Shown in pieces: positions 11,985 to 28,317 of a DNA stretch of 32,850 bases (its first letter is position 1; each line of letters opens with the position of its first letter). The DNA is taken from sequence record SRR31156797_5041; one strand, given 5' to 3'. The translations under genes were made by a program, and so were the position numbers. The notes below the pieces were generated by a model, which did no database searches, was not told where the DNA came from, and saw nothing but the letters and a program-made list of their open reading frames with translations.

Positions 11985-12025
11985 AAAAAGCCCTGAAAAT
12001 CCAAGACGGATTTTCAGGGCTTTTT
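11985..12025. terminator. Bidirectional intrinsic terminator
   Basis: AAAAAGCCCTGAAAATCC/GGATTTTCAGGGCTTTTT between convergent genes. Confidence 0.85.
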
Positions 12026-14562
12026 CAATTCTGGGCGATTGGAAGTTGTATTGTGAATGTCGTTCCTTTGCCGGGGGAGGAGTCCACCTGAAATATTCCA
12101 TGATGGTTCTGAGTAATGATGAAGTATGAGACAGAAAGCCCCAGCCCGGTGCCTGTTCCCGGTGCTTTGGTCGTATAGAAGGGCTCGAAAACCCTTTTGC
12201 GGGTAGTTTCGTCCATTCCCGGACCGTTGTCCGAGATTATGCATTTGACCATATCCCTTTCATTGTGGATTTTAATCGAAATTGTTGGTGAATCGCTCAT
12301 CTCCGGCCAGCCGTTCATTGCCTGTGCTGAATTGCGCAGCAGGTTCAGGAAGACCTGTTCGATTTCAGTGGTGGTGCAGGGGACCATTTCTAGGGGGTCA
12401 TCATAATCCTTGAACATGGTGATTTTTTTGAAATCGTATTCCTTTACAGGGTCGTAATCCTGCGCGGCAAGAGTGGATGCTTTGTCCATGATTTTGCGCA
12501 GGTCGCCCGGTGCCTTGCGGGAATCGCTTTTACGGCTGAATTCAAGCATACCGGAAACAATGGAGGCCGCGCGTACCCCAGAGTCAGTTATTCCGTTCAG
12601 GGTTTTTATTATTTTGCGGTCTTCCATGTAATTAATGATTGAATCAATTGAACAGCCAGCTTTTTCTGCCGCCTTGAGGTTGGCCGGGAGGTCGGGAGAC
12701 ACCCTGCGGACAATATTTTGAATGCCTTGCAGGATTCCACCAAGCGGGTTGTTGATTTCATGGGCCATTCCGGCGGCAAGCCCGCCGATGGACATCATTT
12801 TTTCAGTCTGGATTATCATTTCGTCTATCTGGACCCGTTCGGTGGCGTCATCAATTCTGATAACCGCTCCTCTCATGCCGTCGTTGAGCGGATAGATGAG
12901 GATGTCCTGATGGCTATTGGGATTTGTCATTCCCTGAGTGCGGATTCCCGTTTCCGGAATCCCTGTTTCTATGGCTTGCGCGATGCTGTACGCGTATTTG
13001 TCCAGAGGAGGAAAAGCCTCTTCCACTTCAACTCCCTCAATTTCTTCTTTGGGAATAACAGCCATCCGCTGGGCCGCAGTGTTGAAATGGGTGATTCTTG
13101 TCTGGTTGTCCACCCCGATGATCACCGAAGGCATGGAATCAATTATGTTACGGATGTAATTTTTTGTGTTTTGGAGCTCTGTTTCTATCTTTTTGCGCTT
13201 AGTGATGTCGGTCCCTACGCAGAGTATTTCAGTCAGTTCTCCCTTGGAATTGAGAATAGGACTGTTGGTCCAGTATACCCAGACCTTGCTGCCGTCTTTG
13301 CGTGTATTCAGATTCGTGTTGACCGGAAATTCTTCGGGATTGTCAGTTAACTCATGGATCATCTGTTCGAGTTCCGACTCACCTTTTTCCGTTTTGGGGA
13401 TCAGTGTTCCAATAACACTCTTGCCGATAATTTCCTTTTCGGAAAAGCCAAAAAAAAGTTGGGCATATTCATTAAAAAAAGTGCACATGCCATTGAGGTC
13501 AATTCTTAAAATGATACTGCGGGCAGTATGTACAAGGTCATGGTATTCTTTGCGTGAGCGGGTCAGCTGCTGGGAATGTGAAGCAACTTCATCAAGTAGT
13601 CTGAGTATCTTGCCGGAGAAAAATGCTGTGGCACCAATGTAGTTTCTATTTTCAACAAAAGACATCTTCTGTGCTTCAGTAGCCCAGTCCACCTCACGGA
13701 TACGTTTTGCCGTAGATTCAATGGTCGCCAGATGTTGAAGTTTCTTTTCGGGTTCGTCTACTACCCTCTTCAGCAGGTTGTTAATCCTGATAAAATCCTG
13801 TTCGTTCTTATCAAGGTCCCAAGTCAGAAAGGCGGACCTTTTGACCAGTATCCCTAAGCATATAGCGGTAAAGGTAATCAGCAGCAAACCTGCGTAAAAT
13901 TCTGTGGAAATATCTTTGGCAACAGTTACTGATAGCCCTCCAAAGTTTGAAACTTCGGCTTTCGCAGTTAAGAAGATGTGATAATTAGAAAAAAACAGGG
14001 TTCCTACTCGGTAGGCATTGGGGAAATAGCAGTTTTCTGAGTGATACAGGTTATTTCCATTTCTATCGTTGATATATAATTCAGTATTGTTAGGCGAAAC
14101 AGGGAGGAGACTTTCAGAGGGGACTTTGGCAATGGCAAAACTGTGGTCCAGCCGTTGGATGAGGTAAATGTCATCGTACTCGGATGTATTGTCTGCACGC
14201 TGCCTCATGAGAAGAGCCTGCCCCGGATGGAAATCTTTTACTTTTTGAAAAATAGGGGATTCCGCGATTGATTTGATTTCAATCGGAAAAGGACGCGTGT
14301 TCACCACTTCGCCTGTGGGAGTTACTCTTAATATGGATAGACCATGATCGAAAGTTGCTCGTGAGGTAACTACAGTTTCCAAGAACGAGATTCTTTCTAC
14401 CAGATAATTAGCCCACGTTGAGGCCTTGCCATCTACATCTTTAGATACGGACCAAGAGAAAAGGATTGTTGAGCAGAGAGAGCTTGCAATGAATATGGTC
14501 AGGAAAAGGCAGAGATAATTTCTTATTCGGCTGTTAAGCCTGTGAATGCTTCGTATTTTCAT
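12025..14562 (-). CDS. Membrane PAS-domain sensor histidine kinase (NtrB-like)
   Basis: Two TM segments and two PAS domains. H-box AGMAHEINNPL, N-box QVFLNLLRNS, DNGPGM, FEPFYTTK and GTGLGL. Confidence 0.92.
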   Translation of the reverse strand: MKIRSIHRLNSRIRNYLCLFLTIFIASSLCSTILFSWSVSKDVDGKASTWANYLVERISFLETVVTSRATFDHGLSILRVTPTGEVVNTRPFPIEIKSIAESPIFQKVKDFHPGQALLMRQRADNTSEYDDIYLIQRLDHSFAIAKVPSESLLPVSPNNTELYINDRNGNNLYHSENCYFPNAYRVGTLFFSNYHIFLTAKAEVSNFGGLSVTVAKDISTEFYAGLLLITFTAICLGILVKRSAFLTWDLDKNEQDFIRINNLLKRVVDEPEKKLQHLATIESTAKRIREVDWATEAQKMSFVENRNYIGATAFFSGKILRLLDEVASHSQQLTRSRKEYHDLVHTARSIILRIDLNGMCTFFNEYAQLFFGFSEKEIIGKSVIGTLIPKTEKGESELEQMIHELTDNPEEFPVNTNLNTRKDGSKVWVYWTNSPILNSKGELTEILCVGTDITKRKKIETELQNTKNYIRNIIDSMPSVIIGVDNQTRITHFNTAAQRMAVIPKEEIEGVEVEEAFPPLDKYAYSIAQAIETGIPETGIRTQGMTNPNSHQDILIYPLNDGMRGAVIRIDDATERVQIDEMIIQTEKMMSIGGLAAGMAHEINNPLGGILQGIQNIVRRVSPDLPANLKAAEKAGCSIDSIINYMEDRKIIKTLNGITDSGVRAASIVSGMLEFSRKSDSRKAPGDLRKIMDKASTLAAQDYDPVKEYDFKKITMFKDYDDPLEMVPCTTTEIEQVFLNLLRNSAQAMNGWPEMSDSPTISIKIHNERDMVKCIISDNGPGMDETTRKRVFEPFYTTKAPGTGTGLGLSVSYFIITQNHHGIFQVDSSPGKGTTFTIQLPIAQN

Positions 14563-14833
14563 GAAAGATATGATTTGTCCCAGACATGTCTTTTTTTGGC
14601 GTTTTTGCTGAACTTCTTTTTTGGGTCATATATTTGAAATATGATCCTGTAAACATTTTCTACCCTACAAAAGTTGGGAAAGATTTTCCCCTTGGCATAA
14701 GGCAGAACTTTCCTCCTTCTCTTTGCCTCTGAGCGTTTCTTATTTTCTATTAAGAAATATTTGTTTTTAAAAAGCCAGTCTAAACAACCTCTTGTGCATT
14801 CTTCTTGTAAATAAATAAACGACAGTAAAAGTC

Positions 14834-14849
14834 AGGCACACCCATTGCA
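14834..14849 (+). promoter_or_regulatory. sigma54 (-24/-12) promoter of the flagellin transcript
   Basis: AGGCAC-ACCCA-TTGCA matches TGGCAC-N5-TTGC with exact GG-N10-GC spacing. Confidence 0.7.
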
Positions 14850-14859
14850 AACTTAACTG

Positions 14860-15323
14860 CAGAGTAATCCTGTACTCAATTAACAAGGGGGTGTGGCCGG
14901 AAAATACAGACCGATAATTCCATGAGCATATGAAGGCATTTGGCCAAGTTGATTCTCGGAGGTTGGTAATGTGCGGATTTCTTTCGCATAGAGAATATTT
15001 CCCATAACGGGACATGTGAGAATCGCCGTCGTATGGCCGTGCCTGTCAGAGTCGCGGACTCAGCTAGGAGTCCCGCGTCTTAACCAAAGATTAAGCGGAT
15101 ACCTGCGTGAGTCCATATGCAGGTAATGCCCGAAGATGCTCAAAATGAAGTGTCGGTGGTTATCCGGGCTACAAGGCCGTAGGTCGTAAGTCGAACTGTT
15201 CCGGAGGGTGTTTTATGCAGTAAAAATCAAGCGGATTTTTGTACTGAATAATTAAACCAGTAAAAGGTCGGAGTGGACGGAACCACTCAGGCGAATTTTT
15301 AGATAATTCAAGGAGGAATTATT
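14860..15323 (+). ncRNA. Putative long structured 5' leader of the flagellin mRNA
   Basis: No plus-strand ORF, and a dense series of hairpins and long-range stems found by eye (see findings). The 5' end is inferred from the sigma54 site. Confidence 0.55.
15271..15322 (+). promoter_or_regulatory. Two CsrA-type binding hairpins, the second containing the SD
   Basis: GAGTGG-ACGGAA-CCACTC (15271-15288) and ATAATTC-AAGGAG-GAATTAT (15303-15322). Both are perfect stems with ANGGAN hexaloops. Confidence 0.75.
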
Positions 15324-16199
15324 ATGTCGCTCGTAATTAATCACAACTTAATGGCAATGAACGCAAGCCGTAACTTGCAGGAATCATATGGTAACCTCGG
15401 TGTATCAACCCGTCGCCTGTCTTCTGGTCTTCGTGTTGGAACAGCAGCTGATGATGCCGCAGGTCTGGCAATTCGTGAACTCATGCGTGCAGATGTTAAA
15501 TCTCTGAACCAGGGTATCCGTAATGCAAACGACGCCATTTCCATGATCCAGACTGCGGATGGAGCACTCGGTGTTATCGATGAAAAGCTTATTCGTATGA
15601 AGGAACTTGCAACTCAGGCCGCAACCGGTACTTATAACTCTGACCAGCGTATGATCATCGACTCTGAATATCAGGCAATGGCTTCAGAAATTACCCGTAT
15701 CGCCAATGCGACCGACTTCAACGGAATCCACCTGCTTAACGGTAATGTGTCTGGTGCGCACAGCGGAGCTGGCAAAACATCTACTGGTAAGGTTAAGGTT
15801 CACTTCGGTACCGGTAACGATTCCGCAGAGGACTATTACTACATCGCAATCGGAACCTCCACAGCTTCCGCTCTTGGTGTCGGTCTTGCCGCCGGTAACT
15901 CCATCTCTACTCAGGCGCTTGCACAGCAGTCTCTTGATAAGTTGCAGAATGCAATCATCTCTAAGGATAAGATTCGCGCAAACCTCGGTGCTCTCCAGAA
16001 CAGACTGGAAAACACCATTACCAACCTCTCAATCCAGGCTGAAAACGTTCAGGCTTCGGAATCACGTATCTCCGACGTTGACGTAGCGACTGAAATGACC
16101 GAGTTCACTAGGAACCAGATCCTCACTCAGTCCGCAGTAGCCATGCTTTCCCAGGCAAACGGTATGCCCAGGATGGCTATGCAGCTCATCGGTGGCTAA
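15324..16199 (+). CDS. fliC: Flagellin (short, 291 aa)
   Basis: N-terminal INHN..A, RLSSGLR...AADDAAGLAI and NANDAISMIQTADGAL. C-terminal LGALQNRL, ASESRISDVD.A.EM and QIL.Q....ML.QAN. Confidence 0.95.
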   Translation: MSLVINHNLMAMNASRNLQESYGNLGVSTRRLSSGLRVGTAADDAAGLAIRELMRADVKSLNQGIRNANDAISMIQTADGALGVIDEKLIRMKELATQAATGTYNSDQRMIIDSEYQAMASEITRIANATDFNGIHLLNGNVSGAHSGAGKTSTGKVKVHFGTGNDSAEDYYYIAIGTSTASALGVGLAAGNSISTQALAQQSLDKLQNAIISKDKIRANLGALQNRLENTITNLSIQAENVQASESRISDVDVATEMTEFTRNQILTQSAVAMLSQANGMPRMAMQLIGG

Positions 16200-16225: not shown

Positions 16226-16260
16226 GAAAGGGAGGTCCGACCGATCGGGCCTCCCTTTTC
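16226..16260 (+). terminator. Intrinsic terminator of flagellin
   Basis: GAAAGGGAGGTCCGA/TCGGGCCTCCCTTTTC stem followed by a T-rich tail. Confidence 0.85.
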
Positions 16261-16587: not shown

Positions 16588-17733
16588 TTGTCTACAAAAA
16601 CAGTATATTTCATTGAAGGTGATGGTATCGGCCCTGAAGTCTGGGGTGCCGCCCGCCCGGTTATTGATGCCGCCCTTGAAAAAGCCTATGACGGTGAGAA
16701 AAAGATTGAATGGACCGAACTTCTTGCCGGGGAAAAGGCCTACGCTGAAACCGGAGAGTACCTGCCACAGGATACTCTCGATACTCTTGCCAAAGCCGAA
16801 TTGGCTATCAAAGGTCCTTTGCAGACTCCGGTTGGTAAAGGAATCCGCTCGCTTAACGTTACTCTGAGACAGGTGTTTGATCTCTATGCCTGTATTCGTC
16901 CTATCCGTTATTTTGAAGGAATTGAGTCCCCGGTAAAGCGTCCGGATCTGGTAGATATCGTTGTCTTCCGTGAAAATACCGAGGATGTCTATGCCGGAAT
17001 CGAGTGGAGTTCCGCTTCTCCCGAAGCGAAAAGGGTAATTGATTTTCTGGTGGATGAAATGGGTGCAAAGATCGATCCCTCTGCTGGTGTCGGCATCAAG
17101 CCCATTACTCCCGCAGGATCCAAGCGTCTCGTGCGTAGAGCTATTGATTACGCTATTGCCCAGAGTCGTGAATCCGTGACTCTGGTTCATAAGGGAAATA
17201 TCATGAAGTTCACCGAAGGCGGTTTTCGTCAGTGGGGTTATGATCTTGCTGAAGAAGAATATGCCGGAAAAGTGGTTAAAGAAGGTGAAGATGCAGCAGG
17301 CAAGGTCGTCATCAATGACCGCATTGCTGATGCAATGTTTCAGGAACTGCTCATGCGTCCAGAACAATACAGCGTAGTCGCCACTACCAACCTCAACGGT
17401 GACTATCTTTCCGATGCACTTGCCGCACAGGTTGGCGGTCTCGGCCTTGCGCCGGGTGTAAACATGGGTGACAAGCTTGCTATTTATGAAGCTACCCATG
17501 GAACCGCTCCGACCATCGCCGGTAAGGACCTTGCGAACCCGGGAAGTATTTTGCTTTCCGGAGCCATGCTGCTGGAAAACAACGGCATGGGCGAAGCTGC
17601 TGTTCTGATCAAGAACGCAGTTGAAAAGGCTTTGGCTGCCAAGAAAGTCACTGTGGATCTGGCAAGTCAGATTAGCGGTGCCGAACAGGTCGGCTGTAAA
17701 GCTTTCGGTGAGATTATTCTTACCAATCTGTAG
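16588..17733 (+). CDS. icd: NADP-dependent isocitrate dehydrogenase
   Basis: EGDGIGPE, KGPLQTP, IRSLNVTLRQ, RENTED, VHKGNIMKFTEG, NLNGDYLSD and EATHGTAP. TTG start after AAGGAGA. Confidence 0.95.
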   Translation: MSTKTVYFIEGDGIGPEVWGAARPVIDAALEKAYDGEKKIEWTELLAGEKAYAETGEYLPQDTLDTLAKAELAIKGPLQTPVGKGIRSLNVTLRQVFDLYACIRPIRYFEGIESPVKRPDLVDIVVFRENTEDVYAGIEWSSASPEAKRVIDFLVDEMGAKIDPSAGVGIKPITPAGSKRLVRRAIDYAIAQSRESVTLVHKGNIMKFTEGGFRQWGYDLAEEEYAGKVVKEGEDAAGKVVINDRIADAMFQELLMRPEQYSVVATTNLNGDYLSDALAAQVGGLGLAPGVNMGDKLAIYEATHGTAPTIAGKDLANPGSILLSGAMLLENNGMGEAAVLIKNAVEKALAAKKVTVDLASQISGAEQVGCKAFGEIILTNL

Positions 17734-27612: not shown

Positions 27613-28317
27613 ATGGTGGGATTCGAAATGGTTGCGAGTAATACTAAATTTACAGTGCTTTCGTGCGGTTCTCTTGATAATCTTGGGCTTCAACAAGGCG
27701 AGAGTGTTAATATTGAATTGTTTCCAACTCAGGAGCGTCTTTGGGGAGAGGTTGTAGGTTTTAAGTCCGGTGTATTCCTTTCTGTATGGCTTCCAGCTTT
27801 AAGAGAAAAAGAATATCAGCGGATTTTGGCCGATGATCCTGATGTTACTGTTCGAGCGAAATGCAAAGGCTGCTTTATATGCGGTTTCCGTTCAACGGTG
27901 ACCAGAATTATGAAATATCCTTACCCTCTTCTATATCTGAGCTATCCTGAGTCTTTTGAGAAGGTCAGCTTACGCAAGAACGAGCGTGTAGAGTGTTTTC
28001 AGCCGGTAGGCATTCTTTTTCGAGGAACAGAGTTGCAAGGGGTCTTTAAAGATATTTCAAAATGTGGAGGGAGAATATCATTCACCCTTCCTGATGGTAA
28101 CATCTTTTTCAATATGGGGCAGGACCTGAAGGCTGATTTTTGTTTCAATATGAATGGGGATGGTCCTGAGATCAGTGGAGTCGGAGTTATTCGTAATATG
28201 GTCAGTGGGTCGACCAATGTTTCCATCGGGCTCAAGTTTATGAAGTTAAATAATGGTGCAGAGGCGTTGTTAGATCAAGTGATCAAATCATTTAGCCTGC
28301 ATGCCGGATCTGTTTAA
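27613..28317 (+). CDS. PilZ-domain (YcgR/flagellar-brake-like) c-di-GMP-binding protein
   Basis: RKNER (RxxxR) and DISKCG (DxSxxG), an N-terminal PilZN-like region, and IGLKF. The start could be 27628. Confidence 0.8.
   Translation: MVGFEMVASNTKFTVLSCGSLDNLGLQQGESVNIELFPTQERLWGEVVGFKSGVFLSVWLPALREKEYQRILADDPDVTVRAKCKGCFICGFRSTVTRIMKYPYPLLYLSYPESFEKVSLRKNERVECFQPVGILFRGTELQGVFKDISKCGGRISFTLPDGNIFFNMGQDLKADFCFNMNGDGPEISGVGVIRNMVSGSTNVSIGLKFMKLNNGAEALLDQVIKSFSLHAGSV

Follow-up and report, generated by a model that had tools for sequence, protein, structure and literature searches.

The stretch of DNA analysed here (the window) comprises 32,850 nucleotides of sequence record SRR31156797_5041. 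Its source is a marine sulfate-reducing bacterium of the Desulfovibrionaceae that resembles Maridesulfovibrio. Among 79 loci found by protein search in genome contigs, the flagellin loci nearest to that of the window are those of Maridesulfovibrio genomes and MAGs. The minus strand encodes a PAS histidine kinase (12025-14562, Pfam). The plus strand encodes a flagellin of 291 amino acids (15324-16199), recognised by the Pfam domains Flagellin_N and Flagellin_C. This flagellin, called type C here, is an orphan gene. Its transcript would end at a terminator-like hairpin with 15 pairs and a T run behind it (16226-16259, plus strand), and a gene of the isocitrate/isopropylmalate dehydrogenase family (Pfam) lies at 16588-17733. 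The kinase and the flagellin are separated by a spacer of 761 nt, in which the G+C content is 0.535 at 15000-15199 compared with 0.35-0.40 in the flanking spacer.

The spacer contains a sigma54-type promoter, AGGCACACCCATTGCA, at 14834-14849 on the plus strand. Its -24 GG (14835-36) and -12 GC (14847-48) are spaced by 12 nt, which is correct for a -24/-12 element. The sequence aGGCACaccCaTTGCa at 14834-49 is of the TGGCAC-N5-TTGCW type of sigma54 (RpoN) sites and is conserved in orthologues. It also fits the Desulfovibrio sigma54 consensus, tGGcacg / tTGCt, given in the available part of PMC4641369. The first-pass annotation of the window had placed the end of a sigma54 site at 14849 and the flagellin ATG at 15324, and both positions are confirmed, with 475 nt between the promoter and the ATG. 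All seven orthologous sequences have the element, at a position 486-494 nt upstream of the ATG, while its flanks diverge. Judged by the spacing from the -24/-12 element, transcription is predicted to start at about 14859-14861, which would give a leader of about 465 nt. The 5' tail of this leader (14859-14896, plus strand) is unpaired in the consensus fold based on alignment A2. The conserved parts of the tail are GCAGA, located where transcription is predicted to begin, UAAC, and a GGGGG/GGAGG patch rich in purines. Part of this conservation could stem from a function of the DNA itself, as an enhancer site placed downstream of the promoter. Such a site is reported for DVU1063 in the available part of PMC4641369.

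A promoter or an attenuator terminator within the leader was considered and rejected. No conserved internal promoter was found on the plus strand of the leader in the window and the three orthologues scanned. The sole plus-strand sigma70-like match, present in the window and two of these three orthologues, is weak, and its -10 hexamer falls on the ATG. Scanning of four of the seven leaders gave no plus-strand terminator-like site.

These bacteria have three flagellin genes, encoding near-identical proteins behind three different control regions. Paralogue A has a leader of about 95 nt, fliD-fliS downstream, and a promoter that we take to be sigma28-like by comparison with the consensus. Paralogue B is located after fliK-flgD-flgE and has a sigma54 element at -67/-66. 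Paralogue C, the gene of the window, is the orphan with the long leader and a sigma54 element about 490 nt upstream. The type C and type A proteins of the same genome are 90-97% identical, and the control region is what sets the flagellin copies apart. Four Maridesulfovibrio genomes among the matches yielded only types A and/or B, without a type C locus.

The 79 flagellin-anchored loci, found with the flagellin protein as the query, were also searched for the leader. Homologues were detected by blastn and by nhmmer at E<=10 in six of them (L001, L003, L004, L002, L006, and L011), all of which are Maridesulfovibrio-like. Each homologue lies directly upstream of the syntenic flagellin, in a search confined to flagellin loci. 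The glycosyl hydrolase, the PAS kinase, the flagellin, the dehydrogenase, and a small ORF are shared with the window by all six loci, and an HlyD-type gene by five, with no match in L006. Because the whole neighbourhood is shared, the six loci are orthologous to that of the window. The comparison set consists of seven sequences of one genus, four of them close. Covariance models of two parts of the leader, R1 (14947-15028) and R2 (15038-15127), were used to search 694,542 bases. R1 matched the seven orthologous sequences only, at 90-103 bits, and the next score was 15.4 bits (E = 1.4). R2 gave seven matches at 82-112 bits, followed by one at 16.2 bits (E = 0.44). Neither nhmmer nor the two models revealed a second copy in the window or the 79 loci, and a plasmid collection contained no match to the leader. 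A repeat or mobile element was rejected on account of this single copy and the empty plasmid search.

Conservation and fold of the leader

The leader does not appear to hide a protein-coding gene. As the first-pass annotation had stated, no plus-strand ORF fills the gap between the promoter and the flagellin; the ORFs present are of at most 36 amino acids, and their frame is not conserved. On the minus strand, all seven sequences have stretches of 65 codons or more without a stop, but the frames of these differ between species, which points to a composition effect. A Pfam search with seven small ORFs gave nothing at E<=0.001, and the best match, HofO at E = 0.052, fell far short of the cut-off. 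With differing frames and no Pfam match, a coding gene was rejected for either strand. An upstream ORF with the layout GGAGG-N6-AUG at 14958-71 was rejected as well, since inspection of the alignment by eye shows that the AUG is absent in L011 and that frames and lengths vary.

The leader evolves more slowly than the synonymous sites of the neighbouring gene. Identity to the window over the closed domain described below is 94, 87, 84, 66, 64, and 69% in the six orthologues, compared with 72, 61, 60, not computed, 51, and 49% at synonymous third positions in the neighbouring dehydrogenase gene. In the spacer upstream, which is not transcribed, the close relatives are 87, 75, and 70% identical; in the three distant loci this spacer is about 50% identical and essentially unalignable. 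Near-invariant runs of 16-24 bases are seen in alignment A2 at 14953-76, 15009-24, 15047-57, and 15190-207. Runs of this length in the junctions exceed what a passive stabiliser needs and fit a specific ligand or protein partner.

The plus strand of the leader folds with a minimum free energy (MFE) of -146.5 kcal/mol (z = -3.07). None of 100 shuffles was as good, so the energy stands out from shuffled controls, a comparison proposed in the first-pass annotation. The minus strand has a similar value (z = -3.13), and the single-sequence z-score thus does not choose between strands. A consensus fold was obtained with RNAalifold from the seven leaders in alignment A2. It has 106 pairs, and 96.4% of the 740 cells are standard pairs. 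Covariation among the upstream regions of relatives, another check named in the annotation, is present. Pairs changed on both sides number 16, compared with 5.8±1.8 in shuffles that ignore phylogeny, and none of 500 such shuffles reached 16. When the partners were slid by 1-3 columns, 1-9 pairs were changed on both sides, a control that is inflated by scoring the consensus structure on the alignment from which it came. The consensus energy of the closed domain is -83.1, compared with -34.4±3.9 in 100 column shuffles. The annotation had favoured the plus strand, and the consensus energy agrees (-102.4 for the plus strand vs -69.3 for the minus strand), as do the many invariant G-U pairs, which would be A-C on the opposite strand. 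The conserved, branched RNA fold on the plus strand of the leader is real.

The main body of the fold is a closed, multibranched domain of 308 nt (14897-15204, RNAalifold), all of whose elements are on the plus strand. It is closed by P1, CCGGAA/UUCCGG (14897-902/15199-204). Inside P1, the stem continues through P2 (14911-16/15151-56), in which four pairs are changed on both sides, P3 (14924-29/15136-41), and P4 (14935-39/15126-30), with one such pair. P4 opens into two branches, P5 and P7. P5 (14941-46/15034-39), with three pairs changed on both sides, leads to a three-way junction subdomain (14951-15024), which is supported by the alignment, the consensus fold, and model R1. It consists of P6, GATTCTC/GAGAATC (14951-58/15017-24), P6a with a variable loop (14970-76/14984-90), and P6b (15001-03/15009-11), and its junction strands UCUCGGAGGUUGGUAAUG and GGGACAUGUGAGAAUC are invariant. 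The second branch is a long irregular hairpin arm (15040-15125) built from P7 (15040-46/15119-25), P8 (15056-63/15107-14), three 3-bp steps, and a variable apical loop (15077-94). A side hairpin lies at 15167-92.

This architecture retains part of the multibranched structure drawn from the window alone. Over the seven sequences, that drawing is 89.1% paired, compared with 96.4% for the RNAalifold consensus; P6 and two of its arms hold, and five of its stems do not. P6, proposed there as GATTCTC (14951-57) with GAGAATC (15018-24), is 100% paired in 7/7 sequences and shows no covariation. An alternative partner suggested for it, GAGAAT at 14991-96, survives unchanged in the window and L001 alone and, as judged by eye, is lost in L011. 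The TGGCCGGA/TTTGGCCA stem (14894-14901/14939-14946) is 81.5% paired, the closing stem TATGGCC/GGCCGTA (15032-15038/15175-15181) 83.7%, the arm at 15079-95 81.8%, the arm at 15128-69 77.1%, and a hairpin at 15218-46 82.4%. These five values of only 77-84% arise because the stems break in the distant orthologues L002, L006, and L011. The nested domain closed by CCGGAA/UUCCGG takes the place of the four-arm junction. The other two arms of that junction are conserved, with pairing of 98.4% for 15053-77 and 100% for 15100-25, and occur in the MFE fold of the window, but compete with the hairpin 15040-15125.

The two local hairpins and the long arm exclude each other, and both folds are compatible with the alignment. 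The long hairpin has four pairs changed on both sides compared with one for the local arms, and is the more stable in 7/7 sequences; its advantage is 1.4 kcal/mol in the window and reaches 10.7 kcal/mol in L011. In L006 and L011, the local arms are at a deficit of 7-11 kcal/mol. Since the long hairpin wins in all seven sequences, a switch of 15040-15125 is unsupported as a conserved property, although it is possible in the close relatives of the window. The conformational switch offered in the first-pass annotation fares poorly for the same reason: one fold is favoured throughout, and the other deteriorates among the distant orthologues. The accompanying idea of a large regulatory 5' UTR is supported, within the reach of sequence analysis, by the promoter, the constraint, the covariation, the lack of an Rfam match, and the lack of a conserved internal promoter or a terminator in the leaders scanned.

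The 3' strand of P1 overlaps a putative mini-ORF (15203-15225, plus strand). It is made up of an SD-like GGAGGG (15203-08), a 6-nt spacer, an AUG (15215-17), a single codon, CAG or AAG, and a stop, which is UAA, UGA, or UAG. The SD, the spacing, the AUG, and the in-frame stop are kept in 7/7 sequences of alignment A2. These bases also make up a weak AU hairpin (helix 13, 15211-16/15220-25), and the purine-for-purine variation in the mini-ORF is explained equally well by U-A/U-G pairing in this hairpin. A variable linker follows (15226-15266), in which neither sequence nor length is conserved; the MFE fold of each orthologue nevertheless places some local hairpin there. The consensus fold contains no helix between the domain and the SD region. 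An 8-nt complement, 14914-21/15315-22, through which 14914-21 might sequester the SD of the flagellin, was rejected because it is not conserved.

Two GGA-loop hairpins at the ribosome-binding site

The leader ends in two hairpins at the ribosome-binding site (15267-15323), which the first-pass annotation had missed and which are the most interpretable part of the leader. Helix 14 (15267-15292, plus strand) carries the hexaloop ACGGAA (loop 15277-82, GGA 15279-81), a candidate CsrA-type site 1. It is 98.4% paired over the seven sequences and has two pairs changed on both sides. Helix 15 (15302-15323, plus strand) is the hairpin AUAAUUC/GAAUUAU, which is 100% paired and ends 1 nt before the ATG. 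Its loop holds the SD, AAGGAGG, with the GGA at 15312-14 as a candidate CsrA-type site 2. The AAGGAG of this hairpin is at 15310-15, and a GGA loop that overlaps the SD is the layout of CsrA-regulated leaders.

This candidate operator is a general feature of Desulfovibrionales flagellins that the leader of the window has kept, because it is far more frequent among flagellin leaders than in shuffled ones. Across the 79 flagellin loci, a GGA-loop hairpin is found 21-70 nt before the ATG in 53, at the SD in 61, and at both places in 42. Shuffled leaders have the upstream hairpin in 24%, the SD hairpin in 9%, and both in 2%. The distance between the two GGA motifs of the window is 33 nt (15279 to 15312). 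For comparison, the available part of PMC4894983 gives an inter-site distance of 21 nt in C. jejuni flaA and an optimum of 18 nt for one CsrA dimer. In the 45-nt flaA leader, according to the same source, both ANGGA loops are bound by CsrA, which represses translation and is antagonised by FliW. Neither csrA nor fliW is encoded in the window or in the paralogue loci L007 and L017.

A role of the whole leader as a CsrA sponge was also considered. The leader contains 14 GGA motifs compared with 10.1±2.6 in shuffles, and 195 of 2000 shuffles reach 14. Since GGA is not enriched, the 308-nt domain is not an obvious CsrA sponge, and this candidate was rejected.

Function of the leader and comparison with known systems

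We propose that the leader is a cis-acting, two-module control region of a monocistronic, sigma54-transcribed orphan flagellin mRNA, which joins a CsrA-type operator to an autonomous domain that sets the fate of the transcript. We put the probability of this reading at roughly one half. The fold probably tunes the amount of type C flagellin made. Flagellin is among the most abundant proteins of motile cells, which as a rule control its production at multiple levels. In other bacteria, FliW relieves a CsrA-type repressor upon flagellin export, so that flagellin synthesis is limited to times when secretion is possible. In the proposed scheme, sigma54 and an activator would drive transcription of the type C mRNA. 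Module 1 (15267-15323) would then serve, by analogy, as the translational operator for a CsrA-type repressor. Module 2 (14897-15204) would be autonomous, closed by P1 and parted from the ribosome-binding site by the non-conserved linker. The insulation by P1, this linker, and the missing terminator make SD occlusion or intrinsic attenuation unlikely for module 2, which we infer does not act by hiding the SD. Most likely it would set the fate of the leader, through protection from Rho or RNase and/or through docking of a trans-acting factor, with the invariant junction strands as the likely contact surface.

Other explanations assign the domain a different role. Module 2 may be the aptamer of an undescribed riboswitch for a metabolite or a second messenger such as c-di-GMP, with an output through Rho, mRNA decay, or the mini-ORF (15215-23). 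The three-way junction 14951-15024, which combines invariant junction strands with variable hairpin loops in the seven sequences, would suit an aptamer. So would the exclusive pairings of 15056-61 and 15119-24, both of them conserved, and the SD-AUG-codon-stop unit that overlaps the 3' strand of P1 in 7/7 sequences. Clostridioides difficile has c-di-GMP riboswitches in front of flagellar operons. However, no Rfam riboswitch model matches the window or three of the six orthologues even at E<=10. The four leaders scanned contain no intrinsic terminator, the domain and the SD share no helix, and nothing qualifies as an expression platform. Moreover, the long-hairpin fold is favoured in 7/7 sequences, with an alternative that is 7-11 kcal/mol weaker in L006 and L011, and metabolite riboswitches are not usually confined to a single gene of a single genus. 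We regard a riboswitch as unlikely. A more specific version also seems doubtful to us. In it, the 308-nt domain would represent a novel class of sensor RNA that binds a ligand or a protein and serves this one sigma54-driven flagellin paralogue; the folding of P1 would gate the mini-ORF (15203-15223), and ribosome loading there would decide whether transcription and translation go on into the CsrA-gated start of the flagellin. If this sensor reading were true, a single filament gene would be under a three-layer checkpoint consisting of sigma54 and its enhancer-binding protein (EBP), the sensor RNA, and CsrA.

It is also conceivable, though distinctly improbable, that the sigma54 promoter mainly makes a processed, trans-acting sRNA (about 14860-15225), behind which the flagellin was inserted and is expressed by read-through. 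The available part of PMC4641369 lists four sigma54-dependent non-coding RNAs in the Desulfovibrio vulgaris regulome. The domain is self-contained and insulated by P1, the linker behind it is not conserved, and the type C protein is as close to the type A protein of the same genome (90-97% identity) as a recent gene copy would be. What speaks against an sRNA is that no terminator follows the domain in the four of seven leaders scanned, that the domain is never found apart from a flagellin in the flagellin loci searched, and that no conserved single-stranded seed region was identified. Conservation of the DNA itself, as sites for enhancer-binding proteins or IHF, or stems formed by chance, would leave no functional RNA structure at all; we consider this very unlikely. 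For DVU1063, the available part of PMC4641369 describes flagellar EBP sites that lie downstream of sigma54 promoters at distances of 40-70 bp; such sites could account for a portion of 14875-14930. Close relatives also retain a fair degree of identity (87, 75, and 70%) in the untranscribed spacer upstream, and chance stems would agree with a minus strand whose z-score in the single sequence is the same. Nonetheless, double-sided pair changes are well above both the shuffled and the slid controls, the consensus energy favours the plus strand, the many invariant G-U pairs would become A-C on the minus strand, and about 400 nt are conserved, which is far beyond the extent of any enhancer.

A large, selectively maintained RNA fold stands before one of three flagellins and is absent elsewhere in the sequences searched. 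Should the domain respond to a signal or bring in a factor, it would offer a way of putting an alternative filament subunit to use in specific circumstances, and would be a new structured RNA motif for the Desulfovibrionaceae, for which, to our knowledge, few regulatory RNAs have been characterised. If the domain only stabilises the message, the leader would be an ordinary, lineage-specific one.

The leader has no counterpart in the literature searched, and Rfam 15 gave no match in the whole window at gathering thresholds, in keeping with the first-pass annotation, in which it was recognised neither as a riboswitch nor as a housekeeping RNA. At E<=10, Rfam 15 returned only unrelated or chance matches in the window, L002, L006, and L011. 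One sub-threshold match, to the cow-rumen-4 RNA motif (RF02948), falls exactly on the two-hairpin operator, and AAGGA-type sequences occur in the loops of both hairpins. It scores 20.1 bits in the window and 19.8 in L011 compared with a gathering threshold of 48.5; the leader is not a member of this family. L002 and L006 gave no cow-rumen-4 match, and the match in the window leaves the distal domain untouched.

In Clostridioides difficile, a c-di-GMP class I riboswitch lies upstream of the flgB flagellar operon. Flagellar operons controlled in this way share with the window a structured leader ahead of a flagellar gene. Unlike them, the leader of the window matches neither GEMM nor any other riboswitch and has no terminator-type expression platform. 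A similar promoter is seen in Desulfovibrio vulgaris, where, in the available part of PMC4641369, the flagellin DVU1441 belongs to the sigma54-dependent DVU1063 regulon. The sigma54 flagellar genes of that species and the flagellin of the window have a -24/-12 promoter of the same consensus, but the promoter is about 490 nt before the ATG in the window compared with about 50-70 nt for the D. vulgaris genes covered there.

The closest resemblance in layout is to flagellin leaders controlled by CsrA and FliW, of which Bacillus subtilis hag is one example and C. jejuni flaA another. Like flaA, as described in the available part of PMC4894983, the leader of the window has two adjacent GGA-loop hairpins with the second over the ribosome-binding site; the hairpin 15267-92 corresponds in layout to SL1 of flaA, and the hairpin 15302-23 to SL2. 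The two leaders differ in that the one described for flaA has 45 nt, is driven by sigma28, and spaces its GGA motifs by 21 nt, whereas in the window the spacing is 33 nt and the operator ends a 465-nt sigma54 leader behind a 308-nt domain. A flagellin leader with a CsrA-type operator that is extended by a large, genus-restricted structured domain is what is new here.

Flagellin types and their control regions

Flagellin paralogues fall into three types, whose proteins are near-identical and whose control regions differ. The regions compared were L007 3878-4003, the upstream regions of L017 and L008-L023 (L-numbers denote flagellin-anchored loci) and window 15324-16199. Type A has a sigma28-like promoter with fliD-fliS downstream. 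Type B has a sigma54 promoter at -67 and fliK-flgD-flgE upstream. Type C, represented by the window gene (15324-16199, plus strand), is an orphan with a long leader. Type A and type C proteins of one genome are 90-97% identical, and this high identity suggests recent duplication or gene conversion.

Upstream spacer and candidate regulatory genes nearby

A PAS/HisKA/HATPase histidine kinase gene (12025-14562, minus strand) is divergent from the flagellin gene. The kinase adjoins the long-leader flagellin in all six orthologous loci with 56-89% identity, the match in L003 being split into two pieces, and is a candidate input to a putative sigma54 activator. Kinase gene and promoter are separated by a non-transcribed, AT-rich spacer (14563-14833) with palindromic stretches (e.g., 14744-14773). 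The spacer is 87, 75 and 70% identical in three close relatives, above the identity of synonymous sites, and it may hold activator or IHF sites. Within this spacer, TTCCTCCTT at 14710-14718 is a perfect 9-nt complement to the flagellin Shine-Dalgarno (SD) region (15310-15318). This element precedes the sigma54 promoter and is therefore not part of the predicted transcript; its minus-strand reading is the SD-like AAGGAGGAA. At 11 kb downstream of flagellin, a YcgR-like protein with PilZNR and PilZ domains (27613-28317) is a candidate c-di-GMP-responsive flagellar brake.

SD-AUG units within the leader

Alignment of the seven leader sequences (the window and six orthologues) revealed a unit at 15203-15223 on the plus strand in which an SD-like GGAGGG is followed, after 6 nt, by AUG, a single sense codon and a stop. 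It is located immediately 3' of P1, the helix closing the leader domain, and overlaps the P1 3' strand. The SD-like motif, spacing, AUG, codon and stop are kept in 7/7 sequences, with CAG or AAG as the sense codon and UAA, UGA or UAG as the stop. A small AU hairpin (15211-15216/15220-15225) would account equally well for the purine variation of the stop codon. A second unit, GGAGG-N6-AUG, is found at 14958-14971, within the invariant junction strands of the three-way junction. Its AUG is present in six of the seven sequences and is replaced by CUG in L011. The frame and length downstream of this AUG are not conserved, and thus the unit is probably not a uORF.

GGA-loop hairpins and cow-rumen-4

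The two GGA-loop hairpins preceding the flagellin AUG show sub-threshold similarity to cow-rumen-4 (Rfam RF02948), with 20.1 bits in the window (15265-15322) and 19.8 bits in L011 (3940-3999) against a gathering score of 48.5. Cow-rumen-4, an orphan motif, may in its own right represent a leader element of the CsrA type.
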